Shown here piece after piece: positions 1,467 through 36,648 of a stretch of DNA of 36,648 nucleotides. The stretch comes from a virus (taxonomy: Duplodnaviria; Heunggongvirae; Uroviricota; Caudoviricetes). The notes below the pieces were generated by a model that had not been told where the DNA came from, searched no databases, and saw nothing but the letters and a program-made list of their open reading frames with translations. The translations under genes and the position numbers were made by a program. Every line of letters starts with the position of its first letter. The stretch's first letter is position 1. The stretch lies in the IMG/VR virus record IMGVR_UViG_2675903330_000001; one strand, written 5' to 3'.

Positions 1467-1907
<441 letters not shown>

Positions 1908-1970
1908 CACCCGATTTTCCAATAAAAAAGCCCCATCACAAGGACAGGGCTATAGAATCAATCACTTACA

Positions 1971-2276
1971 TCACTTAATGTCTTTCATTCTACGGATACG
2001 CGCGCTTGCTTCCGGTAGTTCATCCAGTGTTACGTGATAAGCAAGCATACAGACAGGAGTCGGATCAAATCCCTCATGAGTATTGATCAGATGGCTATTC
2101 CCGCCTTTAAACTCATCCTGTCCATCCCATATAGCGTACACGTCATCTTCTGCTACATAGATAATCAATCCAATAGGGGAGTTAGTAAGCTGGAAGATGC
2201 AGCCAGTAGAATCAATGCGATGTTCCCGAACGTCATCAACAGTTTCAAATTCAATCTTAATATCTTTAGTCTTCAT
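1971..2276 (-). CDS. hypothetical protein (101 aa), first prophage gene inside the junction
   Basis: Intact ORF; a weak hairpin plus T-run follows on the minus strand at about 1921-1956. No recognisable motif. Confidence 0.5.
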   Translation of the reverse strand: MKTKDIKIEFETVDDVREHRIDSTGCIFQLTNSPIGLIIYVAEDDVYAIWDGQDEFKGGNSHLINTHEGFDPTPVCMLAYHVTLDELPEASARIRRMKDIK

Positions 2277-2575
2277 GATTTGCCCTCGCGTGAAAAATAT
2301 TTTCGATTATTTATAAAAAAGACTTGACCAAATCAAAAGGTACTGTTCCACGGATGAAATAAAGGGAGTTTTCGGCACCCCGGTTTTTGATGTGCGTGTG
2401 AGATTTCAAAACAGGTGCAGTGCAGCCCACCAGCGCGGTCGCTACGCGACTATTAACACCCGCCAATCCCTTTCCATGCCTCGATCTTTCCCTTCGTTAT
2501 AAAGCGTTTTAGGCGCTCTCCTGAATGCGCAGATCAGATAAATAATTTTACGCAAATTTAATGGAGGATAACCGG

Positions 2576-3127
2576 ATGAAAGAAGAATTAACCCTTACAG
2601 AAATTTCCCGTTTATACGGCTATACAATTAACGCCGCTAAGAAATGGCAAGAACGAGGAATGCCATTTAATACCAATACCCGCCGCGTGCCAGCCAAAGA
2701 AGGAACAGAATGGGTCTTGAAAAATATCATCAACCCGCTTAAAGAAACTACTGTCAAGGAACAAATCGACGTAGAGAAATTACGCCGTGAGAGAGCATTA
2801 GCAGATGCAGCCGAACGAGAGAACCAGGAAGCGATGAATCTCCTGATTCCCGTCGGGTATGTGGAGCAGGAGCTAGCGGAATATTGCGGGAAAGTGAAGC
2901 AGACTATTTTGCAGATCGCCACAATCGATGCCCTAGAAATTCTCGAATCTGCCAATGACCAGAAAACATTGAAGAATAAGCTAAGAGAGATTATCGAGCG
3001 TCGTTTAAATGAAGTAGGGGACTTGTTCGAAAATGCAGATTTGGGAGAAGACGAGGAAGAAGAATTACCATTAATGGATGAACCGGAACAAGAACCAGAA
3101 GAAGACGATGAATTTGATGTGTCTTAA
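2576..3127 (+). CDS. Nu1-like winged-HTH DNA-binding protein, probable terminase small subunit
   Basis: GGAGG 8 nt upstream of the ATG at 2576. N-terminus LTLTEISRLYGYTINAAKKWQERGMP resembles the lambda Nu1 HTH (TIQNWQEQGMP); acidic C-terminal tail. A gpA-type large terminase (9781) normally pairs with a Nu1-type small subunit. Confidence 0.5.
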   Translation: MKEELTLTEISRLYGYTINAAKKWQERGMPFNTNTRRVPAKEGTEWVLKNIINPLKETTVKEQIDVEKLRRERALADAAERENQEAMNLLIPVGYVEQELAEYCGKVKQTILQIATIDALEILESANDQKTLKNKLREIIERRLNEVGDLFENADLGEDEEEELPLMDEPEQEPEEDDEFDVS

Positions 3128-3227
3128 AAATTAGATACTAAATATATACGTGAAGGATGTTGAGCTGGTCAACGTCTACGGGGGAGAACATCCCCCGCTA
3201 ACCTTTTTCTTATTTGAGGATTTACCT

Positions 3228-3329
3228 ATGGTTGAATTTTTGATTTATCTGGCTGTAGGATTAACTATCGTATATTCACTGGCACATATTGGCATTTCTA
3301 CTTTGTGTAACGCTTTCAAGTATCATTAA
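3228..3329 (+). CDS. small hydrophobic peptide (33 aa, one predicted TM helix)
   Basis: ATG with GAGGA 8 nt upstream; MVEFLIYLAVGLTIVYSLAHIGISTLCNAFKYH. Too short for the ORF track. Confidence 0.4.
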   Translation: MVEFLIYLAVGLTIVYSLAHIGISTLCNAFKYH

Positions 3330-3382
3330 TTAAATCGATGAATTGAACTATAGATGATGGTCGTTTTCAAAGAGGATTATCT

Positions 3383-3556
3383 ATGGATCTTTTTGTCTAC
3401 TTTGCTACTCTGCTGTTTTTGACTATCGTCGCTGGCATTAAATTGATTTTTATATCGCTGGTGGTGTTTTTCAAATTTCTAATCGGTACGCCTTACGGCT
3501 GGGTATGCTTCTTTTTGTTTATTCTTTTTAGTTGCTGTAAAAAGGATACTAAATAA
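3383..3556 (+). CDS. small hydrophobic membrane protein (57 aa, two predicted TM helices)
   Basis: ATG with AGAGGA upstream; MDLFVYFATLLFLTIVAGIKLIFISLVVFFKFLIGTPYGWVCFFLFILFSCCKKDTK. Too short for the ORF track. Confidence 0.45.
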   Translation: MDLFVYFATLLFLTIVAGIKLIFISLVVFFKFLIGTPYGWVCFFLFILFSCCKKDTK

Positions 3557-3715
3557 TAGTGTAATCTGCCTTTTCTCCTTATGGTTATTAACAGGGGATC
3601 TTCTTTGAGGATTCCCGATTAAAAGCCATAAAAACACACTTCCAGTACAGTGTTTTCATAGTCAGGATCTATACAACATAAAAACATAACAAGTATAGAT
3701 TGAGTATTAATCCTC

Positions 3716-3740
3716 CCGCCCTTCGGGGCGGTTATTTTTC
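3716..3740 (+). terminator. rho-independent terminator
   Basis: CCGCCC-TTCG-GGGCGG hairpin followed by TTATTTTTC. Confidence 0.6.
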
Positions 3741-3816
3741 TGGCTTTAAAGAATAATGTAGCATTATGTTCATTATAACCTCATCTTTGTTGTGCAAACC
3801 TAACCTAAACTTACTA

Positions 3817-3841
3817 GGGACTCTTCGGAGTCCTTTTTTTT
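3817..3841 (+). terminator. rho-independent terminator
   Basis: GGACTC-TTCG-GAGTCC hairpin followed by T8; the T-run overlaps the stop codon of the convergent minus-strand gene 3840-4082. Confidence 0.65.
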
Positions 3842-4082
3842 ATGCAACAATTCGAAGTGTAAGTTTCTTATGTTGTGTAGGTTTAGTTTCATTTCGCCAC
3901 TCAGGGAATACATGATCCATCATAACCGCATTAGTCTCATCAATCAGCTTTAAGGACTTTCTCAACGCCTTATTATCAGCTTTAAGTGTTTTAATCTCTG
4001 ATTCCATCGCTACCATTCTTTCTTTCATTTTGGTAATTTCTAACATCAGATTACCCAGAAATTCTTTGTTTTGATTCATCAT
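3840..4082 (-). CDS. hypothetical coiled-coil protein (80 aa)
   Basis: GAGGGG RBS upstream; heptad-rich sequence (MESEIKTLKADNKALRKSLKLIDE); last gene of a minus-strand operon. Confidence 0.5.
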   Translation of the reverse strand: MMNQNKEFLGNLMLEITKMKERMVAMESEIKTLKADNKALRKSLKLIDETNAVMMDHVFPEWRNETKPTQHKKLTLRIVA

Positions 4083-4097
4083 AGATTCACCCCTCTA

Positions 4098-5117
4098 TTA
4101 AGCTGCGTATGCGTAGGCGCTGTAGTTGGTGTCATAGATAGCGTCATGCAGTGCCATATGTGCTTCGCGGATCTCGTCTTCGTTTACTTCAATCTCTTCT
4201 TGTTCTTCTTCGGTATCTTCCCAAGTGGTTTTGAATTTAGCCATAAAGTTATTGCGCAGTGTTTCAAAGTTGGTAACTGGTGCGGATTCTGCTTCAACCG
4301 GAACCGGAACTACTACCGGATCAGCTTCTTTCTGTTCTACTTCTTCACCGTTACCCCAACGATAGTTAAGGAGTTCTTCCAGTTCTTCATCAATGGATTT
4401 TTCTTCAACTGCTTCAACTTCAACCGCTGCTACTTCGAAAGTGGTTTCCTGTGCTGACAGTTCAGCTTTCAGAGATGCGTTTTCTGCTTTAACTGCTGCC
4501 ATTTCTGCTTCCAGTTCAGCAATGCGTGCGTTCAGTGCTTCAACTTCGGAAGATTCAACCACTGCAACTTCTTCTTTAACTTCTTCAACTACTACCGGAG
4601 CAACTTCTTTCTGTGCTTCTTTTTTGCAGAAGAAGGAGGAAGTAACCTGTAATGCGTGGTTGTAGAAGGAACCGCCTTTAGTGGTGTTAACAGTACCAGA
4701 AACATCTTTTACAGTGGATTCGGTAGCAACAGTACGGAAGCGTTTAGCAACTTCCTGGGTCTCTACGCCGTATTCGTTACGCTTGCTCTTGTGATGCATT
4801 ACAGCACGGAAGCCGGAAGCAGTTTTAACAACAGCGAGATAGTAAGTTTCATCGGCTTTAGCAGCACGAGCGAAGCAATAAACGGATTCACCTTCTACCA
4901 GTGTAGGTTTAACGTGACGTTTGTCGAAACGGTTAGTGATCTGCCATTCAGCACCGTCTTTGATGCCAGCATTCTGACGCATTTCGGTCAGAGTCTTACC
5001 GGATACTACTTCAAAGGATTTGTCTTGTTTGCTTGCTTTACCTTCCATGACGGTAATGTTCAGTTTGCCGTTGGATTTAATAAACAGGTTGAAGGTGATG
5101 CGCTTAGAATTTTTCAT
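4098..5117 (-). CDS. hypothetical protein (339 aa) with N-terminal globular domain and acidic Ala/Glu-rich coiled-coil
   Basis: Longest uninterrupted frame in the region, AGGAG RBS 10 nt upstream. The plus-strand ORFs over the same DNA are fragmented Ser/Thr-rich antisense artefacts. Confidence 0.6.
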   Translation of the reverse strand: MKNSKRITFNLFIKSNGKLNITVMEGKASKQDKSFEVVSGKTLTEMRQNAGIKDGAEWQITNRFDKRHVKPTLVEGESVYCFARAAKADETYYLAVVKTASGFRAVMHHKSKRNEYGVETQEVAKRFRTVATESTVKDVSGTVNTTKGGSFYNHALQVTSSFFCKKEAQKEVAPVVVEEVKEEVAVVESSEVEALNARIAELEAEMAAVKAENASLKAELSAQETTFEVAAVEVEAVEEKSIDEELEELLNYRWGNGEEVEQKEADPVVVPVPVEAESAPVTNFETLRNNFMAKFKTTWEDTEEEQEEIEVNEDEIREAHMALHDAIYDTNYSAYAYAA

Positions 5118-5162
5118 TTATAAATACTCCTGAATGCTGTGTTAGTTTTAATTGTTCATTTC

Positions 5163-5199
5163 AAGCCTCCTTTGCTGCAACAAGGGAGGCTTTTTATTT
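5163..5199 (+). terminator. hairpin plus T-run (plus-strand terminator-like element)
   Basis: AGCCTCC ... GGAGGCT stem followed by TTTTATTTTT, lying between two minus-strand genes. Confidence 0.35.
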
Positions 5200-5233
5200 T
5201 TAAAGCCATCATATAATTCTCAGTGAAAGTGGA

Positions 5234-5413
5234 TTAACAAACTTGAACGTTAATCTTTATCTGAATTTCGTATTTCTTCATTAGCTTATAGAATCCGCTT
5301 CTATCAATTCCTTCCTTCTTAAAGAAATTCTCGCCGCCTCGTTCAGTATCGCCATAAAAGCGTTTAGCAATATCAACAATCATTTCACGAGTAAACTTAA
5401 CAGGTCTAGCCAT
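5234..5413 (-). CDS. small HTH DNA-binding protein (59 aa), candidate transcriptional regulator
   Basis: ATG at 5413 with GAGGA RBS (the track start at 5428 is a TTG). C-terminal GIDRSGFYKLMKKYEI looks like a helix-turn-helix. First gene of a minus-strand operon diverging from the large intergenic region. Confidence 0.45.
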   Translation of the reverse strand: MARPVKFTREMIVDIAKRFYGDTERGGENFFKKEGIDRSGFYKLMKKYEIQIKINVQVC

Positions 5414-5981
5414 AAGTAGATTCCTCAAATGTGGATTAATAAGGACAATAAAAAGAGCTTTTCGCCCTCGATACTTCTATTTATAAAAGTCATTTCAGAA
5501 AACCCTGCAAAACCACTGTATATCTGATCAGTGGGAGCACGAATTGCTAAAGAGAAGATTAATAATTAATCAATTCGTACATTATTCAATCGAAAAAGCA
5601 CTGTGTGTTTAACCAGTGCTGTGTGTGTTAACAGTGAATCAGGGGATTTTCAGAAGTGAACAATCATTTCATGCATGTATTTATACACGAAAAAATCTTG
5701 TTTATCATCAATATGTGGATTGTTTCGAAAATTTCAACCCCTACCAATGAGAAAAAGTATAAAATAATCCTTGACAGTTGTCAATGCACTTGACCTAAGC
5801 GAGAAATGACTATCAAAATTTTTGTGTGAAAATGGCGGATAACGATTATCAACCTTTATAACCTATTATAGCACGGCGACCTTTTGATAATTCTTTTTAA
5901 ATCATGCATTTACAGCGATTTTTGGTGATTTTCCGGTTAAATAATATACAAGAATTTTCTATCAAAATTTTTGATGAAAAA

Positions 5982-6122
5982 CCTACACTACAAACCTACG
6001 CTTTAAAGGTATTGGCCTACACTACACTAGTCAGTAAACCTACACTATAACACCCTCAAACCTACACTATGAAACCCTCAAACCTACACTATGAAACCTA
6101 CACACCTACACTAACCCTACAC
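5982..6122. repeat. iteron-like array: at least 9 copies of CCTACAC within about 21-bp tandem units (AAACCTACACTATGAAACCCTC)
   Basis: Direct count of CCTACAC/CCTACGC at 5982, 5995, 6016, 6039, 6061, 6083, 6097, 6105 and 6116. Confidence 0.8.
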
Positions 6123-6700
6123 TTCAATCTCATAAGTGTATGATCTTGAAAGACATTTCACCCCACAGACCATAGAATATAAAATTCGAACTAACGTTCT
6201 CCTTTTTGCTCGTTTTCTCTCACTACGTTCAAGAAAGATCTCGCAAAAAGAATACGGCGTAGCCGTGCGCGAAGCGCCCATCAACACCTTCTAAGACCTG
6301 CAAGCAGGATTCGAAAGGGATTGGATAGTTCGCTTCGCTCACGTTCACGCCTACGGCGTTCACTCGCTTTTGAAAGGATTTTCTTAGAAAGGGATTTAAT
6401 ACTAGTTACTAACTGATTCTAGTAAACGAACGAAGTGAGTAACAATCACTTTCTAGAAAGGTATTGGTATCCCTTCGGGATTGCAACCTTCGGTTGCTAA
6501 ATTGCTTCCTGATTATAATTTCTCCAAAAGAAAGATTCTTATATTCTAAAGATACTTCTTCGTTTTGATGATGATTTAATCAAATATATGAAGGAGGGCT
6601 TTAGCCCGACTGAATCCAATCACTTCCAAATAGATAAAAAATTCTCGTTATAAATAATAGTGAACTTACTTGATTCACTTTCTTTTAGAGGATTTCCACT

Positions 6701-7150
6701 ATGATCAATACTAAAACTCCTTTCGTACTTCTGGGTCTGGACTCTGAAAACTATGGCAACTTCCATATGCTAGAAGTTTTCGCTAATCGTGGTTATAACA
6801 TCATTCGTCATTCCGAAGACTCCAACTACTCAACTGCTTTCTACGCTTTAAAACGAAATGGTCGTCCTACTGTGATCATCGACTGTTTTACTGATGAGGG
6901 TCGTCTTCAATACAACGATATTCCAGCAATTATTGTTCGTGATGATCTGCCGTTTCAAGTCCGTTCCGGTGACATTGACCTGGGTAGCTTCTTGACTCTT
7001 CGTGAACTGGATGAAGCAATGTTTAATTACGGTAAAGAAACCGCTCAGGAAGCCCCAGAACAAGATGAGGAAGACGAAGACTACGCACCAATCGCTTTCT
7101 CTTCTCACGGTGGCTTCTACGGTTACGATGAAGGCTTAGATATGCTGTAA
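6701..7150 (+). CDS. hypothetical protein (149 aa) with acidic C-terminal tail
   Basis: AGAGGA RBS; codon usage strongly biased to E. coli optimal codons; C-terminus EAPEQDEEDEDYAPIAF ... FYGYDEGLDML. Confidence 0.55.
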   Translation: MINTKTPFVLLGLDSENYGNFHMLEVFANRGYNIIRHSEDSNYSTAFYALKRNGRPTVIIDCFTDEGRLQYNDIPAIIVRDDLPFQVRSGDIDLGSFLTLRELDEAMFNYGKETAQEAPEQDEEDEDYAPIAFSSHGGFYGYDEGLDML

Positions 7151-7185
7151 GTTAGGTCAACCCTTTGGCGTCTTGTCAAGGGGTA

Positions 7186-7214
7186 TTGACAAAAATTTCT
7201 GACTTTTTTATGAT
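7186..7214 (+). promoter_or_regulatory. sigma70-type promoter (TTGACA, 17 bp, TATGAT)
   Basis: Near-consensus -35 and -10 with 17-bp spacer, 57 bp upstream of the 7271 ATG; followed by a second TTGACA and a TTGACCTAG motif that also occurs at 5787-5800. Confidence 0.5.
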
Positions 7215-7270
7215 TATCGCACTTGACAACTTTGAACCTATTTGACCTAGATTTGTAAAGAGGATGTAAC

Positions 7271-7603
7271 ATGAAAGAATTTACCATCACTAAATCCCTG
7301 TATGACTGGACTGTTAAAATCTCCGGCAAAACCGTTTCTGTAACCCCTAGCCATGTAGAAAATGATTGGGGTGTATCCCGTGAAACTATCTCCCGTAGTA
7401 TGCATGTTCCGTTTGATCTGATGACCTTAACTGGTATTCATGCAATGCTGGAAGTTCGCGAGCAATTCGAAGCTGGTAATCACAATGCGACTCCAGTTAA
7501 CAATCACCTTCTTACTAATGAAGAACGTGAAATCATCGAAAATTGGCGTTATGAATATGCGATTCCTTATTATGAAGAAGACCAAGTAGAAATCGATTGG
7601 TAA
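7271..7603 (+). CDS. hypothetical protein (110 aa)
   Basis: AGAGGA RBS, intact ORF, optimal codon usage. Confidence 0.5.
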   Translation: MKEFTITKSLYDWTVKISGKTVSVTPSHVENDWGVSRETISRSMHVPFDLMTLTGIHAMLEVREQFEAGNHNATPVNNHLLTNEEREIIENWRYEYAIPYYEEDQVEIDW

Positions 7604-7692
7604 TAAATTTCTATCATAAATAAAAATGTTCCGGTGGTGATGCCGGAACTAGGAGGATCAATATCACTAAACCGTTTAAGGGGAATTTTACT

Positions 7693-8526
7693 ATGAATAC
7701 TGTTACTACTATGAATACTGCTGTTAAAACTGCTTCCGTGTCTCTGGTTGTTGATAACGAAGTTGCAAAAATGACTCTTCGTGAAATTGCCGACCTTATT
7801 GGAGTTCGTTTTTCAAACCTTGAAACTTCTATGAACCGACTGGTTGAACGCCAAGTTATCCGAAAACCTGCAACGCAGAATTTCGAGAAAATCAATAACT
7901 TAGGGTTTGCTGTTACTGTTAAAGATTATGTGTTTGAGGGTGAGCAAGGTCGCTTAGATTCGATTGTCTTGATTGCTCAAAACGTACCGGAATTTACTCG
8001 CCAACTGGTTGACCGTTGGAATTATCTGGAAGAGAAACTGAAAACCGCCAATAATACTCCTGTTAACCCGTATGCGGACTTTGAAGAAACCGACTGGATC
8101 GAACTGGCATTAGATGAAAAACGCAAAAATAAAAAACTGATTGAGCTACACATTCGCAAATCCGTAGATAGCCATTCTATGACACGTCTGTTAGGCGCTA
8201 AAAAGGGCGCTACGAAGGTTAAACAAGCACTGACGGCCTTACGTACTGCTGGCTACATTGAGCGCGTCTATGATGAAAATAACAAGCCGTGTGGGTATGT
8301 TGCTAATGACTCTTCTCTGTCTTTCTGCCGCATGAATGCTCATTACCAGCTTGAGTTTACTGTTGATGTTCTTCCGGTGCTGGTTGAATTGGGCGTTTTG
8401 GAAGAAGAACAGAAAGCAACTCTTAAACTGCCGCAGCCAAATAACACTATTCTGATTCAAAACAAAGCTGCTAAACAGATTCGTGAATCAGGTAACGTAA
8501 TTTCCCTTGTTGATTTTGGGATCTGA
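7693..8526 (+). CDS. phage regulatory protein, Rha-like (putative antirepressor)
   Basis: AAGGGGA RBS; N-terminal MTLREIADLIGVRFSNLETSMNRLVERQ resembles the Rha-family N-terminal DNA-binding region. Confidence 0.45.
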   Translation: MNTVTTMNTAVKTASVSLVVDNEVAKMTLREIADLIGVRFSNLETSMNRLVERQVIRKPATQNFEKINNLGFAVTVKDYVFEGEQGRLDSIVLIAQNVPEFTRQLVDRWNYLEEKLKTANNTPVNPYADFEETDWIELALDEKRKNKKLIELHIRKSVDSHSMTRLLGAKKGATKVKQALTALRTAGYIERVYDENNKPCGYVANDSSLSFCRMNAHYQLEFTVDVLPVLVELGVLEEEQKATLKLPQPNNTILIQNKAAKQIRESGNVISLVDFGI

Positions 8527-8532
8527 TTAATC

Positions 8533-8562
8533 GCCCGGCGCATAATTGCGCTGGGCTTTTTT
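8533..8562 (+). terminator. rho-independent terminator
   Basis: GCCCGGCGC-ATAATT-GCGCTGGGC stem followed by T6, immediately after the 8526 stop. Confidence 0.7.
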
Positions 8563-8573
8563 GTATCTGATGC

Positions 8574-8790
8574 ATCCAGATTTGGATTTATCGGAAGAAT
8601 CAATAGGTTAGAGATGAGCGCAGTTTTGCGCCGATTGATTCAAGTTTGAATTTCTCGAAAGAATCAACCACTTAGATAGATACGCTGAACTTTAAGCACA
8701 TCTCCTCAGTTTTGAGGGCATCTATAGATCAGTCCAAATCTGGACTCATCGGAAGAATCAATGACTTAGAGATGTGCTCAGTTTTGAGCG
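8574..8790. repeat. three tandem 50-70 bp direct repeats (core TCGGAAGAATCAAT ... TTAGAGATG ... CAGTTTTG), outer copies prefixed by inverted CCAGATTTGG / CCAAATCTGG
   Basis: Copies at about 8574-8640, 8648-8720 (degenerate) and 8725-8790, lying between convergent terminators. Confidence 0.7.
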
Positions 8791-8794
8791 GATA

Positions 8795-8824
8795 TAAAAA
8801 AGGCCAACCCCGAAGGATTGGCCT
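8795..8824 (-). terminator. rho-independent terminator for the minus-strand operon
   Basis: AGGCCAA ... TTGGCCT hairpin preceded on the plus strand by A6, giving a T-run on the minus strand after the 8831 stop. Confidence 0.6.
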
Positions 8825-8830
8825 AGAGAA

Positions 8831-9061
8831 TCAAATTCCTGTTGCTTCTACCATTTCACCGTCAACCTGAACAAAGAATTTCAAATCAACTTTATGTAGG
8901 GATTTGTATAGCTGGGCTATAGATAAGCCATGCTCATTTAATACCCGTTCTTTGTTCTCTTTACCTTTCGGTGCTTGATAGTACGCTTTTACAATCGCTG
9001 CCAGTTGTTCACGATTAAAACGGGCAGGGCGACCGCGAGTAGCTTTAGTAGTCATAGTCAT
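8831..9061 (-). CDS. small DNA-binding protein (about 75 aa)
   Basis: GGAG RBS; ATG at 9061 or 9055; TKATRGRPARFNREQ followed by an HTH-like GLSIAQLYKSLHK. Confidence 0.45.
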   Translation of the reverse strand: MTMTTKATRGRPARFNREQLAAIVKAYYQAPKGKENKERVLNEHGLSIAQLYKSLHKVDLKFFVQVDGEMVEATGI

Positions 9062-9090
9062 TTTCTCCAAATTAAAGTGAATGTTCACCT

Positions 9091-9693
9091 TTATTTAGAG
9101 GACTTACATTTTATAGGAAAAAGTTCTCCATCGTCAACCGACATAAAGAACTCTGCCTTAATCCCGTACTTCTTCAACCGTGAATAGTATGTACCCCGAC
9201 TTATATCAACCTTGCGCAGCACTTCGAAGAAGGACTTAGGATCGTTGTAATAGTGGCTATATCGCACGTTAGCGAGTTCTACAAACAATTCCCTTGTATC
9301 ACCATAGCCTTTCTTAAAAGCCTCGTTACGATAGCGTGTAATAGCGTGATTCAATCTCTTCTGTTTCAACACTTCTCGGATCGGCTTCCACTGCAACCGA
9401 TAGATAGGACCGTCATCAATGCGATAATAACGCTTGATATCAAAATCAAACCAATCTCGGACTCTCCGAAACTCTGTATGTGATGTTCTATGCTTCTTAA
9501 AGAAGTTGTGAACGTCTGTATAACCATTATCGCGGTAAAATTCTATTAAAATCTCTTTCGCTTCCTCACGGCTAAACCCAGATGTTGTGTAGTCGGTCTT
9601 CTTGTGATGGTGCTTAACTGGCAAACGATATTCATGATCGGTACAAGACAAGGCTAATTCTAATTCATCTCTTTCTTGCTGATTAATTAGCAT
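9091..9693 (-). CDS. hypothetical HTH-containing protein (200 aa)
   Basis: Transcribed divergently from terL; C-terminal [23 protein letters not shown] is HTH-like; an internally repeated basic/aromatic segment. Confidence 0.45.
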
Positions 9694-9780
9694 ACACCCT
9701 CCTTAAATCTTAATACCCGTATTTATCAAAAAATCAACAATTTAATAAATACCTTCATATTTCGTAATGAGGGTAATTAC

Positions 9781-11685
9781 ATGAAACTAATTTCTAATAA
9801 GGCCAAATTAAAAAAGATTCTTAAAAATGCAGCCAAATATATTACGCCACCGCCTAAACTCCTTCCATCGGAATGGTGCGAATCTAATATGGTGCTGGTA
9901 GATGGTCCTCAAGCTGGGGATAAAGTTAAATTGCTGTCATTCCAGAAAGGTATGATTGATGCTCCTTTCCTTGAGAACAAGAAAAAGTATGTTCTGATGA
10001 CCAGTGCGCAGATCGGAAAGACTACCATCCTGAACGGTATCCTGTTTAACCAGATGGCTAACGATCCATGCAATATGATTATCGGACAATCAACCGCTAA
10101 AGAAATGTCTCAATATCTCGCTGGTAAGATCCGACCGTCTATCGAAGCATGTGATGCATTAAAAGACGTGGTTACAGACAAGAATGATCGCAATTCTGTT
10201 AATAACAACAATCAGCTCCAGCTCAAATCAAACCACTTCCTTTATATGGTATCGCTTACTAGTCCATCAACCCTGCGCGGTAAGACTGCAAAGGTCGGAC
10301 TACTAGACGAAATCGATGCTGCTACAGCCTCAGAAGAAGGTGATCCGGTGGCACTGGCTGCTAACCGTTTAACTACCTTTGGCGATGAAGGCCGATTAGT
10401 CGTATCCAGTACCCCGACCAGTAAGCTGGGAAGCATTAACCAGCAATGGTTATCAAGTGATATGCGTATGTTTTTTGTTCCGTGTCCTCATTGCGGGGAA
10501 CACCAGGTGATCGAGTGGGAAAACGTTCAATTTGAATGGCGTAACATCGATGGTAAGAACTTACCCGATCCTGATACCGCTCGTTATATTTGCCCCCACT
10601 GTAAGAACGCATGGACAGAAGGGGAACGAATCAGGGCAGTAGCACAAGGCGAGTGGAGAGCAACCCGTGAAAGTGAAGTAGCCGGATTCTGGATTAGCCG
10701 TCTGTATTCACCTTTCAGCACGATCCGCGCTTGTGTGGTTGATTTTAGTCATGCGTGGCAATCCTTTGATTTACAATCATTTTATAACACCGTGTTAGGC
10801 AAAGTATACGACGATCAGGACACGGCAGTAGAAGCAAATGAACTGGAACAACTCAAAACAGATGTTTCTATCGAGAATATCCCTGATGACGTGATTTTCT
10901 TGTGTGCGGGTACTGACCAGCAATTAGATCGCGCAGAAACTACAATCATGGGCGTGGCAAAGGATAAGATTTATATTCTGGATCATCGCAGCTTTTACGA
11001 TCATAACTGTGAACGATATGAATCCCCTGTATGGGATAGATTAATCAACTTCCATAAAACCAAATTTACTACTGTATCTGGTGATCGTGTTCCTATGCTC
11101 GCCAGCTTCCTTGATACATCGAACGGTCGATTCACTCAAGCTGGATACCGTATTTGCGGCAAGTGGAAGAACTTACACGCTATCAAAGGTAGTTCTGCTG
11201 GTAACGCTCCGATCATTCCGGTTAAACCTACCCGCACAGGTGGTCATGAATTGCTTATGTTGGGTGTTAATGTGGGTAAAACTGCATTTCGTGAAATGTT
11301 GGCTAGGAACCTGAAAGATAATCCTCATATTGGCTTAGAAATATCAGACACCGTTCCTGATGATTATCTCGATCAGCTTTTAAGTGAATCTGTCAAGCGT
11401 ACTACTACTGGCGTGAGATGGGTAAAGAACCCAGGCGTTAGGAACGAGGCGCTCGACTGCGCCGTGTATGCTACAGCGGCTTCTCGCTACGTCCTTTCAA
11501 AAATGTCATGGGATAAACTCATTGCAATGAAAGACAGCTTAAACAGCGTTAAAGAAGAACCCGTAAAAGCTCCTGAATCGCAATCTGACGAGCAAATCGA
11601 AGAAACTAAGCCAATCACACGACCGCAACGTCAAAACATCGCCAGACGCCCAAATAGAGGCCGTAGCTGGGTAACATCGTTCTAA
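9781..11685 (+). CDS. terminase large subunit, lambda gpA-like
   Basis: GAGGG RBS; Walker A-like [10 protein letters not shown]; paired Cys motifs CPHCGEHQ ... CPHCKNAW; 634 aa; lies upstream of the portal gene. Confidence 0.8.
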
Positions 11686-16724: not shown

Positions 16725-17558
16725 ATGAATATTACACAAGATAACTTAGACATTTTCACGGGGTCGCATGTTGAAGTCTCCGTGTCTACTATGGTGGATA
16801 ACCAGCCGGACTTTTTCGATCCTGCATTTAGTCCTATCGAGAACATCGCAGCATTTCCGACGATAACCGAATCCACAGAGATCCAGACGTTAGAAGAATA
16901 TGACCATGATGTTACTGGTAAGTTGGCTGGCTATCGTAAACTTGAATCAACAACACTCACAGTAAACCGTGTTCTGGATGATGAACATCAAGCAATGTTG
17001 ATGAAAGCGGTAGAGGATAAAACCCCTTTACGCTTCCGTATGTTCTATGTTGTGAACTCTGGCTATAGTGCTGCTAACACAGGATACTACGTCATTTTTG
17101 ATGCATACGTCACATCACACAAAACCCGTGGTAGCGATAACAAAGTTACTACCATCGAATTTAAATTAGATCCTGATGGTGGGATTCTCGACCGTGGTAT
17201 TGCCACCGAAGGCCGGATCTTACGTCAAGGTGATTTTGGTTTGGGCGCTGGTGTACATCCATTCACAGGTCCGATTGATAGCGAAGCATTAGCCGGAAAC
17301 CGTTTCGTAACTTATCAGGGATCGAGCGTATCTAATCCATTTAGTGCTGATACTTCACTAATTCACGTTCAACCTAATGAAGATGGTGGATGGCAATTAA
17401 CTTGCACCGCTTCCGGCGCACCACGTTTACGAGTTCGCACAGTCCAGAAAGACGGTAATTCTGGATGGGTGAAAGTGTATTCCACAGAAGAAAAACCGAC
17501 ACCAGCCGAGATTGAAGCCGTTTCTATCCATGACCGGATCGACTTCGGGGAATACTGA
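16725..17558 (+). CDS. putative tail-associated protein (277 aa), C-terminal motif shared with the tail fiber
   Basis: Weak by-eye resemblance to lambda gpV-type tube proteins; the C-terminal EEKPTPAEIEAVS mirrors DKPTPAEIGAYS in the fiber gene 17632-21156. Confidence 0.35.
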   Translation: MNITQDNLDIFTGSHVEVSVSTMVDNQPDFFDPAFSPIENIAAFPTITESTEIQTLEEYDHDVTGKLAGYRKLESTTLTVNRVLDDEHQAMLMKAVEDKTPLRFRMFYVVNSGYSAANTGYYVIFDAYVTSHKTRGSDNKVTTIEFKLDPDGGILDRGIATEGRILRQGDFGLGAGVHPFTGPIDSEALAGNRFVTYQGSSVSNPFSADTSLIHVQPNEDGGWQLTCTASGAPRLRVRTVQKDGNSGWVKVYSTEEKPTPAEIEAVSIHDRIDFGEY

Positions 17559-17631: not shown

Positions 17632-20600
17632 ATGCAGTCGATCCAATTTAAACGAACAAATGTTTCTGGCAAAAAACCAACGCCGGAACAATTACAGGTC
17701 GGTGAGGTAGCAATCAACCTTAAAGACCATGTTATTTTCACCAAAGACCGAGATCATGAAGTAGTTCAAATCTCTGTTTCTCCTGAAACTCACGCGGCAC
17801 TAGAATCTAAAGTTGATGCTAACAAACAAGAATTGGATAGCACAATTGCAGTAAATGACCGCAATATTCACGCTAAAGTAGATGAAATTAAACAAACTAC
17901 TGATGCAACCATCGCAGCAAATCACGCAGAAATTAACAATAAAGTTGATGTAATTAAACGCGAAACCGACGCGACAATCGAGGCCAATAAAAATAAAGCT
18001 GCTTCCGATCTTGCTGGTGTTAAAGCTGAATTGTCGGATACCATCAACGCTAATAAAAATGCGGCTGCTGTAGCAACTCAGGAACTGGACACCCGCATCA
18101 ATAAAAAAGTTGATGATATTAAATCCCGTACCGATGCAACCATCGTAAGCAATCACAAAGCAATCAATGACAAAGTTGATTTGATTAAGGCAGAAACTGA
18201 CCGCACTATCGCAGCAAATCACGCCTATGCGGAAAATCAGTTAACTGACACCTACAATAACCTTACTGGTGTGATTGCAGCCAATAAGCAAGAGGCAGCG
18301 GATAACGTCGCAGCATTAACCCGTGATGTTGAAGCCAAAAATACAGCAATTCATAGCAAAGTTGACAATAACAAGTCTTACACTGATTCTGAATTGGCAC
18401 GCTTAGAAAGCCGTATTGATGCAGCCGATGGATCAAGTGATGGTAAGTACATCAAAAAGCACGTAAACACTTGCACTGATGGCTATTTGCTGTCTAAGAC
18501 CGCAAACCCTTTTGATGATCCGAGTGCTCTTAATCTTGATTACTTTGGTGCATTTCGCATGAATGACCTGGCGGGTCATATTGCAATGATCTTGCATGTT
18601 CCGCACCCATCCGGCGTTAATCATGCTCGTGGTTTTGAGTTCACTTATGGGTCTAATCCGGTTCATACGGTAAGAACATACGGCTATGATGAATTGGGAC
18701 ATTTGGCATATTCTCACCGCATGTATCATGAAGGTGATAAACCTACTCCGGCTGAAATTGGCGCATATTCGAAAGCAGAAATTGACCGACTGTTCCAGAA
18801 GACGCTTAATTTTGGTATCGAGGGTGGTTGGTTTAAACTAGGCACTTTGACAATGCCACAACAACACGGTCGCACGGCTAAGATCCGTTTGGTTGGTGGT
18901 AACGGTTATAACGTAGGACATAATGGACAAGCCAATATTATCGAATTGGTGATTCGATGCGGCAACAATAGCCCGAAAGGTGTTGTATTCAATGCGTATT
19001 ATACTATTTGGCATTATGAACAACATTTTTGCGCTATTCCAACCGATGGCGACAATTACGATCTTTACGCTTACTACGGTGCACATACAGGATTTGTTTT
19101 AGCAGAATATCAAGTTTCTTCCGGTGGTGTTTCTTTAAACCTGTTGGATACTCCTGAATACCTGGGCGGTGAAAAACCTGTTGCAGATGAAATTTTTGAT
19201 GCTCTTAACATTTCATCGTTCAATAACTTTAGCAACCGTGGAACGTTAAATTTTGGTGGAAACCATCAAGGTCAATATGATATTGAGCATTTAAACGAAC
19301 AACCGACAAATGCTAAAAAGATGTTGCGTCGCTTCCGTAGTTGTGCTCCTGCCACTATCTGGCATGAGACAGTTGATGATAACAAGTATCGTCTTGCTAC
19401 TGGATACGAAGATACAAATCAGGAATTATTGCTGTCAGCAACATCCGGGTTACATATCAAGAAATTAACATTGGATGGCGGTGTTACTGGAAATTCTGGT
19501 ATTGATATTCGTCGAGGACCAAATGAAGCAAGCCATTTTAATTTCATGGATTATCGCACTGGACAAGATGTTCGTAATGGCTGGTTTGGCTTCGGTGATG
19601 GAACAACCAAAGATTTTATTTGGTGGAACGATAACGGTCAAAACTCGATAAACCTGATTGAAGACGGTGAATTACATATTACTGGCGGTAGAGGCCAGAA
19701 AATTGTAATGAATAGCGAAGTGGCATTATCTGAAAATGCTCGTTTGGCTGTCAAAGGTGGTAACTATGGTTTAATCCTTCGTAATGATGGTTCTAGCTTC
19801 CATATTCTTACTACCGATTTAAAAGATTCCTTTGGGACGTGGAATACTCGTAGACCATTTAGTTATGATTTCGCCGAAGGTGGATTAGATCTAGGTGGCA
19901 CAGCTACCGCACGCTGTTTACATCTGGGAATTGATGGTAGCACCCGCATCGAAGATAATATGGTGTTTAGATCAGGGTCTCGTCAGTCAATGGACTATAT
20001 TGAATTAATCCATTGGGGTAACAGTAATACAGGACGCAATAACGTTTTGAGTATGCGAGATTCCAAAGGTTTCTTGGCTGAATTTGAACGCGTGGGGGGT
20101 ACTAACGGCGTTAAAACCAGATTCTTTGGCGAAACATTCACTGATGGTACATTATACCTAAATCAGATGAATAATAGCTCTGAACGATTCTCTATTAATA
20201 ATTGGGGAAATTCAGAAGTTGGTCGCGCGGCAGTGATGGAAGTCGGTGATTCCAAAGGTTATCACTTCTATACTGAACGTAGGACAGATAACAGTTTGAT
20301 GTTTGATGTTGCTGGCGCTTTTACTGTGCATGGACCTTCCGGGATTACTATCAAAAACTCTGCTGGTGCTCGCCACGTCTGGTTTAGAGATGATAGCGAT
20401 ACGGAAAAGGCTGTTATCTGGGCTACAGATGAGGGTATTTTACATATTCGCAATAACCACGGTGGACAATTTACACATCACTTCCAGGGCGCGATGATTA
20501 AACTGGAAGGGCGTGTTCCTTATGCCGCAGATCAAGGACTTATCCGTGGTGAGGTTTCTGGTGGTGCATATGTTGCATGGAGAGACCGACCTGCTGGTTT

Positions 20601-21156
20601 GTTGGTTGACTGTCAACAAAGCGTTGATAGTGCTCATGCTATTTGGAAAGCGGTTGATTGGGGGCGTAACTACATCGCTGCTATGGACGTTCATTGTCCC
20701 GGTGATAGTAATAATACTGCGGCAGCGGTTCTTCATGTTCAGGGTGCTGATTATCAATTCCATGCAAGTGGAGAATTTCATGCCACTGGTAACGGAAACT
20801 TTAACGATGTTTATATTCGTTCCGATCGTCGTCTGAAAATTAATGTTGAAGATTACGAAGAAAATGCGGTGGATAAGGTAAATAAACTCAAAGTTAAAAC
20901 CTACGATAAAGTTAAATCTCTTAATGACCGAGAAGTTATAGGTCATGAGATTGGTATTATCGCACAGGATTTACAAGAGGTATTACCGGAAGCTGTTAAA
21001 ACCGCAAAAATTGGTGGTTTTGATAACCCAGAAGAAATTTTAACAATTTCAAACTCCGCAGTGAACGCGCTTTTAATTAAAGCGGTCCAAGAAATGAGCG
21101 AAGAAAATAAACTTCTTCGTGAACGTCTTGCTGCAATTGAAGCTAAATTAGGGTAA
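17632..21156 (+). CDS. side (L-shaped-type) tail fiber with C-terminal intramolecular chaperone domain
   Basis: 1174 aa; N-terminal about 21-aa repeats (KVD-IK--TDATI-AN); C-terminus SDRRLKINVEDYEENAVDKVNKLKVKTYD ... LLRERLAAIEAKLG is typical of the self-cleaving endosialidase-type chaperone (peptidase S74). Confidence 0.75.
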   Translation: MQSIQFKRTNVSGKKPTPEQLQVGEVAINLKDHVIFTKDRDHEVVQISVSPETHAALESKVDANKQELDSTIAVNDRNIHAKVDEIKQTTDATIAANHAEINNKVDVIKRETDATIEANKNKAASDLAGVKAELSDTINANKNAAAVATQELDTRINKKVDDIKSRTDATIVSNHKAINDKVDLIKAETDRTIAANHAYAENQLTDTYNNLTGVIAANKQEAADNVAALTRDVEAKNTAIHSKVDNNKSYTDSELARLESRIDAADGSSDGKYIKKHVNTCTDGYLLSKTANPFDDPSALNLDYFGAFRMNDLAGHIAMILHVPHPSGVNHARGFEFTYGSNPVHTVRTYGYDELGHLAYSHRMYHEGDKPTPAEIGAYSKAEIDRLFQKTLNFGIEGGWFKLGTLTMPQQHGRTAKIRLVGGNGYNVGHNGQANIIELVIRCGNNSPKGVVFNAYYTIWHYEQHFCAIPTDGDNYDLYAYYGAHTGFVLAEYQVSSGGVSLNLLDTPEYLGGEKPVADEIFDALNISSFNNFSNRGTLNFGGNHQGQYDIEHLNEQPTNAKKMLRRFRSCAPATIWHETVDDNKYRLATGYEDTNQELLLSATSGLHIKKLTLDGGVTGNSGIDIRRGPNEASHFNFMDYRTGQDVRNGWFGFGDGTTKDFIWWNDNGQNSINLIEDGELHITGGRGQKIVMNSEVALSENARLAVKGGNYGLILRNDGSSFHILTTDLKDSFGTWNTRRPFSYDFAEGGLDLGGTATARCLHLGIDGSTRIEDNMVFRSGSRQSMDYIELIHWGNSNTGRNNVLSMRDSKGFLAEFERVGGTNGVKTRFFGETFTDGTLYLNQMNNSSERFSINNWGNSEVGRAAVMEVGDSKGYHFYTERRTDNSLMFDVAGAFTVHGPSGITIKNSAGARHVWFRDDSDTEKAVIWATDEGILHIRNNHGGQFTHHFQGAMIKLEGRVPYAADQGLIRGEVSGGAYVAWRDRPAGLLVDCQQSVDSAHAIWKAVDWGRNYIAAMDVHCPGDSNNTAAAVLHVQGADYQFHASGEFHATGNGNFNDVYIRSDRRLKINVEDYEENAVDKVNKLKVKTYDKVKSLNDREVIGHEIGIIAQDLQEVLPEAVKTAKIGGFDNPEEILTISNSAVNALLIKAVQEMSEENKLLRERLAAIEAKLG

Positions 21157-22155: not shown

Positions 22156-22626
22156 ATGACTACTAAATTTGATATTTTTTCTGGTGGCCTCGTTGGTCTG
22201 TTTCTGCATGAAGAAGTAACTAACACCGATCTTGACAGTGAAAGCTATCTGGAAATTCCAGAATGTGCGGCTTTCCCGGAAACTGGTGTAGAACGTTCTA
22301 CTGTCGATGTTCCTAACTTCGGTGGTCCGTATAACCGTAAGCTGGTTGGTCGTATGTCTGTACCGGATATCGAACTTTCGATCAACTACATGCCGGGTAA
22401 CGAAGTACACGAAAAACTGATTAAAGCAACCGAAGACGGTAAGCGCGTACAGATTAAAATTGCTTACTACATCGACGCTACGAAAAAATCTGGTGTACAT
22501 ATCGCTTATAACGGCTTCCTGTCTAAAACTACCATGACTGGTGGTGAGGATGCTGTAGTAGGCCGTACCTTCACCTTTGTAGTAGATGGTGCTCCGGTTA
22601 AACAAGCTGTTTTCCAGAAACTCTAA
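22156..22626 (+). CDS. major tail tube protein
   Basis: 156 aa, immediately upstream of the G/GT chaperone pair and the tape measure gene; optimal codon usage; terminator-like hairpin after the stop. Confidence 0.6.
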   Translation: MTTKFDIFSGGLVGLFLHEEVTNTDLDSESYLEIPECAAFPETGVERSTVDVPNFGGPYNRKLVGRMSVPDIELSINYMPGNEVHEKLIKATEDGKRVQIKIAYYIDATKKSGVHIAYNGFLSKTTMTGGEDAVVGRTFTFVVDGAPVKQAVFQKL

Positions 22627-36495: not shown

Positions 36496-36648
36496 GGTAA
36501 TGACTCCAACTTATTGATAGTGTTTTATGTTCAGATAATGCCCGATGACCTTGTCATACAGCTCCACCGATTTTGAGAACGACAGCGACTTCCGTCCCAG
36601 CCGTGCCAGGTGCTGCCTCAGATTCAGGTTATGCCGCTCAATTCGCTG
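36496..36648 (-). mobile_element. insB: IS1 (partial; insB-proximal inverted repeat and 3' end of insB), continues beyond the window
   Basis: GGTAATGACTCCAACTTATTGATAGTGTTTTATGTTCAGATAATGCCCGATGAC ... is the reverse complement of the IS1 right end; the minus strand encodes the InsB C-terminus (...[20 protein letters not shown]...). Confidence 0.9.

Follow-up and report, generated by a model that had tools for sequence, protein, structure and literature searches.

A 339-residue protein and a direct-repeat array very probably form a matched pair in a family of enterobacterial prophages

The DNA analyzed here, referred to below as the window, is a stretch of 36,648 nucleotides (IMG/VR record IMGVR_UViG_2675903330_000001, Caudoviricetes). 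Its left part is Escherichia coli chromosome, and a siphovirus-type prophage of about 35 kb extends from a break in the gene ycdX to its right end. The subject of this study is a set of three minus-strand genes in the early region of the prophage, and in particular the gene for a protein of 339 amino acids (aa). A first reading of the letters alone, which we call the original prediction, had described three co-oriented open reading frames, each with its own ribosome-binding site. This description agrees in its coordinates and in the Shine-Dalgarno-like sequences that precede the three genes (GAGGGGTG, AGGAG and GAGGAA). The genes and the parts of the central protein are the following.

3840-4082, minus strand: open reading frame of 80 aa (third gene)
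4098-5117, minus strand: open reading frame of 339 aa (second gene), the core of the cassette
4623-5117, minus strand: codons 1-165 of the 339-aa gene; basic, predicted beta-rich N-terminal domain (N-domain) of type A, the putative iteron-recognition domain
4440-4562, minus strand: codons ~186-226 of the 339-aa gene; leucine-zipper-like coiled coil, EALNARIAELEAEMAAVKAENASLKAELSAQ
4101-4133, minus strand: last 11 codons of the 339-aa gene; C-terminal tail DTNYSAYAYAA with terminal Ala-Ala
5234-5413, minus strand: open reading frame of 59 aa (first gene), counted from its ATG; an upstream TTG would give 64 aa

The 339-residue protein and its companions

The three minus-strand genes are genuine, conserved and under purifying selection. 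The ratio of nonsynonymous to synonymous substitution rates (dN/dS) is lowest for the 59-aa gene (0.08); the N-domain of the 339-aa gene has 0.14-0.16 and the 80-aa gene 0.24, and the order of a small gene, a gene for about 330 aa and a third gene is repeated in divergent relatives. To call them a three-gene module, as had been proposed, is too strong, since the 59-aa gene recombines apart from the other two and the third gene is variable or absent.

The 339-aa protein belongs to an orphan family; in a set of 1.84e9 proteins, clustering at the 50% level gave it only 2-3 relatives. An exhaustive phmmer search with the N-domain gave P0121 and P0123 as its only real relatives, and no homologue of this domain was present among the GTDB species representatives. 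Profile searches with all three proteins, with their type B and type C counterparts and with the third-gene variants (Pfam, PHROGs, NCBIfam, PADLOC and PDB sequence profiles) returned coiled-coil noise only. The statement that the 339-aa protein resembles no standard phage family therefore stands, and a search for confident homology to a known family, which would have contradicted it, found none. Fold searches with a low-confidence model of the protein also found nothing. A second gene of the same architecture occurs in types B, C and D (defined below) and in every prophage of the family that was examined.

The proposed architecture was borne out for the N-domain of about 165 aa and for the acidic C-terminal half; the coiled coil between them, described as long, is confidently helical over only ~40 residues. 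The N-domain has an isoelectric point (pI) of 9.8 and a net charge of +12. In a single-sequence model of the protein the helix 190-226 has the best predicted local distance difference test score (pLDDT), and in the profile search the zipper segment gave weak matches to TSC22, bZIP and DivIC coiled coils. Heptad duplications occur in the zipper among the E. coli variants. The C-terminal half has a pI of 4.1 and a net charge of -34, and the acidic region is prone to insertions and deletions; the Ala/Glu/Val-rich part outside the zipper is of low complexity and low pLDDT. Some RefSeq records name the second gene 'bZIP transcription factor' (type B second gene in UTAK-14 and CFSAN061761) or a gene of the module 'coiled-coil domain-containing protein' (type A module in HCP5S3_I4 and PRO_A-1412-6M-A_ESBL); the zipper segment is the sole source of these names.

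At the C-terminal end of the protein, types A and A' have a terminal AA without exception, and it is found also in type B and in the type D loci L030 and L031. Second genes end in ...AYAA, ...FAYAA, ...VR(R)AA, ...DFAA or ...LKAA in 8 of the 13 loci compared, in ...NVA in Proteus and in ...SYCQ in the four loci of type C. A C-terminal pattern ...(L/V/A)AA-COOH is thus found in most second-gene variants. We take this tail to resemble the ssrA tag AANDENYALAA and ClpX C-motif 1, ...(L/V/A)AA-COOH; handling of the 339-aa protein by ClpX may be supposed from it.

Codon usage sets the 339-aa gene apart. On a provisional scale its codon adaptation index (CAI) of 0.70 is the highest in the window, above the capsid (0.52) and tail-tube (0.62) genes and the 59-aa (0.26) and 80-aa (0.23) genes, and second genes of all five types tested have values of 0.56-0.70. 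The same scale gives 0.45 for gene E of phage lambda, 0.43 for D, 0.39 for bet, 0.27 for O, 0.27 for cI, 0.23 for rexA and 0.15 for rexB. Because the index is 0.70 and is kept high across the types, the protein appears to be selected for very high output. Classical initiators, repressors and exclusion proteins are not produced at such a level. From the codon usage and the comparison of loci in the next section it is very probable that the 339-aa protein binds DNA, is heavily expressed and recognizes repeats upstream of its own operon.

The label 'helix-turn-helix (HTH)-like' for the 59-aa protein rests on a helix pattern and on paralogous repeats: a three-helix pattern like that of IS3-OrfA and TetR N-termini is present, but profile backing failed. 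Comparison of the 59-aa family with HTH profiles and structures gave no significant match (the best was HTH_Tnp_1, E 0.08, with one member), and a Pfam domain is recorded on none of its 39 members. The motif ...FF..EGI..S.FYKL.KKY... occurs once in the 59-aa protein, once in an 85-aa protein (8831-9088, minus strand) and twice in a 200-aa protein (9091-9693, minus strand), so that one phage carries four copies of this unclassified HTH-like motif. The 85-aa and 200-aa minus-strand genes are candidates for the lysogeny repressor that the prophage seems to lack. The 59-aa protein is probably a separate regulator. The 80-aa protein is a basic coiled-coil protein (pI 9.6). Its counterparts in relatives have 67-333 aa or are absent (type C loci), and all versions end in a coiled coil followed by ...LR[ILV]V[AGS]-COOH. 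The basic zipper of the 80-aa protein and the acidic one in the 339-aa protein might pair with each other.

Concordance of N-domain types and repeat types

The iterons that the original prediction had placed next to the genes were located about 0.9 kb upstream of the 339-aa gene, beside an AT-rich stretch (5800-5978, GC content ~0.31-0.34) that flanks them.

5979-6127, plus strand: iteron array, about nine direct copies of AAACCTACAC(TA) in a single orientation; putative binding site of the 339-aa protein

The iteron motif has 15 matches in the window where 2.1 are expected, and the spacings within the array are mainly 11 and 22 bp. Many related prophages found by megablast match the flanks of the module only. 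Our comparison took in 13 related prophage loci, found in E. coli, Salmonella and Proteus and in unassigned assemblies. Each of their arrays has between 5 and 16 copies; almost all of these point the same way, and most spacings are 11 or 20-23 bp. An array with this orientation and spacing points to a protein bound along one face of the double helix rather than to an RNA motif. Such helically phased repeats, of the kind seen in centromere-type sites, dominate in all five types that were distinguished:

N-domain type A: iteron core CCTACAC
N-domain type A': iteron core CCTGCAC
N-domain type B: iteron core TCCCCG
N-domain type C: iteron core TGCCCCT
N-domain type D: iteron core ATCCCTA

The five types of N-domain and the five types of iteron are concordant in all 13 loci. 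When every core was counted in the spacers of the other types, none reached the numbers of an array; the maximum was three copies of CCTACAC, in two type C loci. Between types A and A' the N-domains have 43-47% identity and the iteron cores a single-base difference, a sign of graded specificity.

Near-identical prophages of different type show which genes do not follow the iterons. Between ETEC4090 (type B) and ETEC1703 (type C) the Rha proteins are 99.6% identical, the 75-aa HTH proteins 100%, the 110-aa proteins 98%, the 150-aa proteins 95% and the 200-aa proteins 93%; the 60-aa HTH proteins are 80% identical with an identical putative recognition helix. The second genes of the two prophages are unrelated (24.6% identity in a global alignment), and so are the iterons. 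This comparison rules out Rha and the 149/150-aa, 110-aa, 200-aa and 75/85-aa proteins as iteron binders. The 59-aa HTH protein is ruled out likewise, since three recognition-helix types of this protein are found among the loci and assort freely with the iteron types, and so is terS, which is 91-96% identical across types A, B and C. More generally, the other early genes, the HTH-like gene and the leader are exchanged independently of the N-domain/iteron type.

Two mosaics separate the pair from the DNA between its members. Second gene and iterons are both of type C in rl0044 and PD23; the intervening HTH gene and ~560 bp of leader are of the window type or of the Salmonella type. Matched flanks around foreign intervening DNA point to selection for the match and are hard to fit with linkage alone. 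Because the N-domain and iteron types are concordant while the other early genes shuffle, the 339-aa protein is the best candidate for a sequence-specific iteron binder. Very probably, the protein and the direct-repeat array constitute a matched protein-site pair whose members are exchanged together like lock and key; that the protein itself contacts the iterons on DNA is, on the same covariation, likely. The suggestion of a replication- or partition-like module with adjacent iterons is in this respect supported for the 339-aa gene, whose N-domain type tracks the iteron type in 13/13 loci.

Further copies of AAACCTACAC, two exact and one with a single mismatch, lie on the minus strand at 3857-3866, 3875-3884 and 4901-4910. 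These cores are inside the 80-aa and 339-aa genes, are inverted with respect to the main array and are not found in the 76%-identical relative L003. They may be due to chance or may be lineage-specific autoregulatory sites.

Non-coding surroundings and prophage setting

The DNA between and upstream of the three genes contains several conserved elements.

5118-5233, minus strand: spacer between the 59-aa and 339-aa genes, with the motif CTGAGAATTATATGATGG (5206-5223), an A-run, a hairpin, AGGAG and TATTTATAA, followed by the ATG
5163-5192: hairpin GCCTCCCTTG..CAAAGGAGGC, plus-strand terminator-like, with a 12-bp stem and then a T-run (terminator scan)
5414-5978, minus strand: independently exchangeable leader region with promoter, palindrome, LexA-like boxes, hairpin and the AT-rich stretch 5800-5978
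5784-5756, minus strand: strong sigma70-like leftward promoter TTGACA-17-TATACT, carrying the palindrome TTGACAACTGTCAA
5469-5453, minus strand: hairpin with U-run in the leader
5514-5533, 5599-5618 and 5617-5636: three LexA-box-like sites (CACTG-N10-CAGTG), the latter two in tandem
6128-6456: non-coding, hairpin-rich stretch with GC hairpins and GAAAGGGATT-like repeats; type-specific, travels with the iterons
6568-6597, plus strand: strong rightward promoter-like element, ~440 bp from the array, within DNA that all types share

A plus-strand terminator-like hairpin between the first and second genes had been predicted, and the hairpin at 5163-5192 with its T-run is kept in nearly all relatives. 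The spacer element as a whole is kept in types A, A', B and C and in the type D cassette of Proteus. The motif CTGAGAAnnATATGATGG upstream of the hairpin is conserved along with it, and CTGAGAATTATATGATGG occurs only once in the window. Within the first codons of the 339-aa gene lies a plus-strand promoter-like site, TAAACA-18-TAGAAT (5081-5110); a reading of the alignment showed that it is not conserved in L003 or L002. An antisense RNA over the start of the 339-aa gene was judged unlikely on these grounds, the terminator being conserved but the promoter-like site not.

The leader of the window is of a type shared, at 88-91% identity, with loci of other cassette types, and the palindrome TTGACAACTGTCAA is conserved across lineages. 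The 59-aa protein probably acts on this palindrome in the leftward promoter. Tandem LexA boxes are the arrangement of colicin operators. All matches to ACTG-N10-CAG in the whole 36.6-kb window fall within 5515-5635. With a LexA position weight matrix (PWM) the three leader sites were the best in the window, and their best score was reached by none of 200 shuffles. Among the 13 loci the boxes are significant and conserved in position in 8, a Salmonella relative having the canonical TACTGTATGAATATACAGTA; the PWM found none in L021, L023 and Proteus.

The hairpin-rich stretch 6128-6456 contains the GC hairpins ACGGCGTAGCCGT, GCGCGAAGCGC, ACGCCTACGGCGT, ATCCCTTCGGGAT and GCAACCTTCGGTTGC, about five copies of (T)AGAAAGG(G/T)ATT and CTTTC..GAAAG palindromes. 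Loci of types B and C have its flanks in common with the window, but not the stretch itself. Between types A and A' it shows conserved blocks and some compensatory hairpin changes, but the covariation term of RNAalifold was positive (unfavourable) and gave no net support, so that an RNA gene in this spacer is unsupported. Rfam had no match in 1800-10000.

Further to the right, the stretch 6509-6600 (plus strand), upstream of the gene for a 149-aa protein, is 76-80% identical to un-annotated intergenic sequences of T-even phages of the RB49/JSE type (Krischvirus, e.g. ELT4 and KFS-EC), which carry 1-3 copies per genome. The part in common with these phages consists of a sigma70-like promoter (TTGATG-16-TATGAA in the window) and, after it, the hairpin GGGCTTTAGCCC. 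The stretch is similar to the 'promoter-early stem-loop' (PeSL) mobile cassettes described in RB49 and phi1 (PMC2839356), and if it is PeSL-like it would be unexpected in a siphovirus-type temperate prophage. A second link to this virulent group is a 101-aa open reading frame at the left prophage end (1971-2276, minus strand), with 73.5% DNA identity over ~100 nt (2079-2180) to a hypothetical gene of RB49/JSE-type T-even phages. The 149-aa early protein (6701-7150, plus strand) likewise has a raised CAI, 0.49 (relatives 0.46-0.55), and an acidic C-terminus, ...YDEGLDML; profile searches matched it to no known family.

The other landmarks of the window are these.

168-255: tRNA-Ser, E. coli chromosome flank
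Left part of the window: ghrA, E. coli chromosome flank
1907: point at which ycdX is interrupted by the prophage
2561-3127: terS (phrog_57)
9781-11685: terL, lambda-type
Structural and lysis part of the prophage: portal, protease-capsid fusion, tail genes and M15 endolysin
34828-36468: large serine recombinase (integrase)

The family uses two chromosomal insertion sites, ycdX (1482-1907 in the window) and hicB, the antitoxin gene of hicAB, and both target genes are truncated (relatives L001, L022, L024 and L032). Strain BS74R-D carries two family prophages of the same cassette type, one in each site. The family was found in 63 of 5,426 complete E. coli genomes (~1%) and also in Shigella, Salmonella and Proteus. 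The relatives of the module in IMG/VR are only near-identical E. coli prophage contigs, most of ~35 kb. Among 50,697 genomes of isolated phages, tblastn found no match to the 339-aa, 200-aa or 286-aa protein, and the module is absent from the isolated phages searched; nor did a literature search by protein accession, by ycdX/hicB prophage and by serine recombinase yield anything on this element. At ~36497-36648 lies what we take to be the terminal inverted repeat of IS1 (GGTAATGACTCCAACTTATTGATAGTG...). Because this IS1 end begins ~30 bp beyond the start codon of the integrase, the right attachment site must be outside the window, and the IS1 end may affect expression of the integrase. Within the structural genes, a 1174-aa protein (17632-21156, plus strand) strongly matches the distal subunit of T4-type long tail fibres (phrog_1699, E 2e-135); its gene is placed between two tail-tube-like gene sets (16725-17558 and 22156-22626), which is unusual for a siphovirus-type structural operon.

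Possible roles of the pair and known systems

The role that we favour, as possible rather than probable, is that the 339-aa protein recognizes and organizes a cognate replication origin. The basic N-domain would read an iteron of 10-12 bp, and the zipper would oligomerize the protein, so that many copies could line up along one side of the helix at intervals of 11 or 22 bp. Either a partner or ClpX would engage the acidic region and the C-terminal tail, and the 80-aa protein would be an accessory coiled-coil partner. Made in very large amounts during lytic growth, the 339-aa protein would then mark and organize the origin of phage replication. This role is favoured because no replication initiator, helicase, helicase loader, primase or polymerase was recognizable in the prophage by profile searches, because the array adjoins an AT-rich stretch, and because the domain order, with a type-specific DNA-binding N-part, an oligomerization helix and an acidic effector part with a possible ClpX tag, would suit it. 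Furthermore, the same-type prophages that reside together in BS74R-D fit an origin more easily than an immunity determinant.

Several points weigh against an origin function. A CAI of 0.70 is not predicted for a classical initiator (0.27 for lambda O); these values were computed with Sharp & Li weights, the ranking of the lambda genes looks sensible, and the absolute values are provisional. There are no conserved DnaA boxes among the loci, no helicase loader or partner was identified in the prophage, and the iterons are short asymmetric direct repeats, unlike those of lambda. The fold searches ran on a low-confidence model. The concordance itself rests on covariation, which linkage could in principle explain, although the mosaics argue otherwise. 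LexA control is ruled out as a universal feature, the boxes being tied to particular leader types.

Matched protein-site cassettes that are swapped among near-identical phages are the classical signature of an immunity region, and the 339-aa protein might accordingly be read as a repressor or silencer that nucleates on the array, oligomerizes or spreads and blocks rightward early transcription, with the types as immunity groups. The array does have the leftward promoter on one side and the rightward early genes on the other, no CI-like repressor is recognizable elsewhere in the prophage, and high abundance could suit a spreading silencer. Heteroimmunity is a serious competitor of the origin reading but, in our view, unlikely. 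The array is ~195 bp upstream of the leftward promoter and ~440 bp from the rightward element rather than over either, and no type-specific site covers the rightward promoter-like element at 6568-6597, which lies in the all-type stretch. Profile searches found no HTH_3, Cro/C1, ribbon-helix-helix (RHH) or peptidase S24 domain in any of the three proteins, and the 200-aa and 85-aa genes with the HTH motif are alternative repressor candidates. LexA-like boxes between the leftward promoter and the operon would lower expression in the uninduced lysogen. The codon usage, unlike that of known repressors (lambda cI, 0.27), and the same-type double lysogen BS74R-D point in the same direction, both being weak arguments. 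The phased repeats could instead belong to a centromere-like or genome-organizing pair, in which coating of the array would position, compact or protect the phage DNA through a host partner on the C-terminal tail, without initiation. Runs of 11-bp-spaced repeats, with up to six such spacings in a row in Proteus, resemble parC of plasmid R1; the succession of DNA-binding domain, oligomerization helix and C-terminal peptide is that of centromere-binding adaptors, and high abundance, as suggested by the CAI, would fit. This is improbable, since the element is integrated by a serine integrase and partition is therefore not needed; moreover, no ParA, ParM or TubZ-type NTPase was found in the window or the related loci and no RHH or ParB domain was detected.

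The original prediction had also considered an exclusion or defence function, that is, an accessory moron acting in superinfection exclusion, defence or anti-defence (e.g. as an acidic DNA mimic or a host-protease decoy) with the iterons as unrelated neighbours. The hypervariability of the locus among related prophages, as in defence hot spots, the acidic C-terminal half, the ClpX-tag-like terminal ...AA and the gene orientation opposite to the structural genes would agree with it. The idea gained no support and is about as improbable as a centromere: PADLOC-DB gave no match beyond sub-threshold LmuB hits on the coiled coil (E ~4e-4), the CAI is far above that of lambda rexA/rexB (0.15-0.23) or cI, the presence of a gene of the same architecture in every family prophage examined makes it core and not accessory, and the 13/13 concordance would be left unexplained. 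That concordance also speaks against a unit like immI of phage P22, with the 59-aa protein as an Arc-like autoregulator, the 339-aa protein as an Ant-like antirepressor, a sar-like antisense RNA ending at the plus-strand terminator and induction through LexA, for an antirepressor needs no matched iteron array. The small gene, the spacer with its conserved opposing terminator and the large gene do occur in the matching order, with a plus-strand promoter-like site at 5081-5110 and LexA-like boxes upstream; but that site is not conserved in L003 or L002, the boxes are missing from several loci, and there is no similarity to Ant, KilAC, P22_AR or Bro domains, so that we give this arrangement still less credence. 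Least probable is a role in the virion or in its assembly, as a decoration, head-fibre or scaffold protein whose gene stands apart from the structural operon. A CAI no lower than those of the capsid and tail-tube genes would suit such a protein, as would a conserved N-domain with a variable, exposed-looking C-terminal half like that of decoration or fibre proteins. Against this, the gene is part of the early region, on the opposite strand, where it follows an HTH gene and a sigma70-type promoter that has LexA-like boxes; a protease-capsid fusion usually needs no separate scaffold. The N-domain type, furthermore, goes with the iterons rather than with the head genes: for terL, identity is 98% from type A to B and 58% from B to C.

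These comparisons turn an anonymous 'hypothetical protein' into a concrete pair of five protein types matched to five DNA repeat types, in a prophage family without recognizable replication or immunity genes. They provide a natural specificity code for a DNA-binding domain of unrecognized fold, with ready-made swap controls. As an origin with its initiator, the pair would add a new mode of replication start in temperate phages; as an immunity determinant, it would represent a new type of repressor. Either reading would allow prediction of compatibility or immunity groups among these prophages, and the pair could supply orthogonal protein-DNA pairs for engineering. It is conceivable, although rather doubtful, that all features combine in a DNA-binding protein of new fold that is made above capsid level, polymerizes from the phased iterons as an origin complex or a spreading immunity silencer, and is dismantled through a ClpX-type tag. 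A whole lineage of enterobacterial temperate phages would then use machinery unrelated to the described initiators, repressors and partition proteins.

Among known systems, lambda O with its origin and the Rep proteins of iteron plasmids are alike in that a type-specific DNA-binding N-part, putative in the prophage, is matched to repeats beside an AT-rich stretch and protein and sites are exchanged together. Lambda O is an unstable substrate of ClpXP. The O-some of lambda forms on four iterons, which are 19-bp imperfect inverted repeats (PMC7466680). The present system differs in having 5-16 short asymmetric direct repeats at 11/22-bp spacing, located ~0.9 kb upstream of the gene rather than within it, no P-like helicase loader that we could find, and a CAI of 0.70 in place of the 0.27 of O; the 339-aa protein has neither sequence nor detectable fold similarity to Phage_rep_O, Rep_3 or winged-helix Rep proteins.

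Protein p6 of phage phi29, an abundant early histone-like protein of 103 aa with an acidic C-terminal tail, forms a periodic nucleoprotein array at the replication origin. The abundance and architectural role proposed for the 339-aa protein and its acidic C-terminal part are similar. There is no sequence relationship between the two, and p6 recognizes bendability, not a defined sequence, in protein-primed replication at linear ends. In the ParR/parC system of plasmid R1, as in other centromere-binding adaptors, a protein composed of a DNA-binding domain, an oligomerization region and a C-terminal partner-binding peptide binds cooperatively to direct repeats that recur every ~11 bp. Repeat period and domain order correspond to those found here, whereas our element has no RHH domain and no partner NTPase gene and integrates in the chromosome.

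The cI/cro-operator regions of lambdoid phages and the 'stoperators' of gp71 of mycobacteriophage L5, which are many asymmetric sites in a single orientation, share with the prophage family a matched protein-site cassette that sets specificity types in near-identical temperate phages. The 339-aa protein differs from these repressors in having no detected HTH or peptidase S24 domain, in sites that lie off the early promoters, in its extreme codon adaptation and in the occurrence of same-type double lysogeny. The immI region of P22 (arc-sar-ant) has, as here, a small DNA-binding gene followed by a gene for ~300 aa, with an opposing terminator in the spacer; here there is no homology to Ant, the antisense promoter is not conserved, and the association with iterons would not be explained. 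The 339-aa family is thus best placed as an orphan of unrecognized fold that appears to follow the known logic of a matched DNA-binding protein and repeat array.

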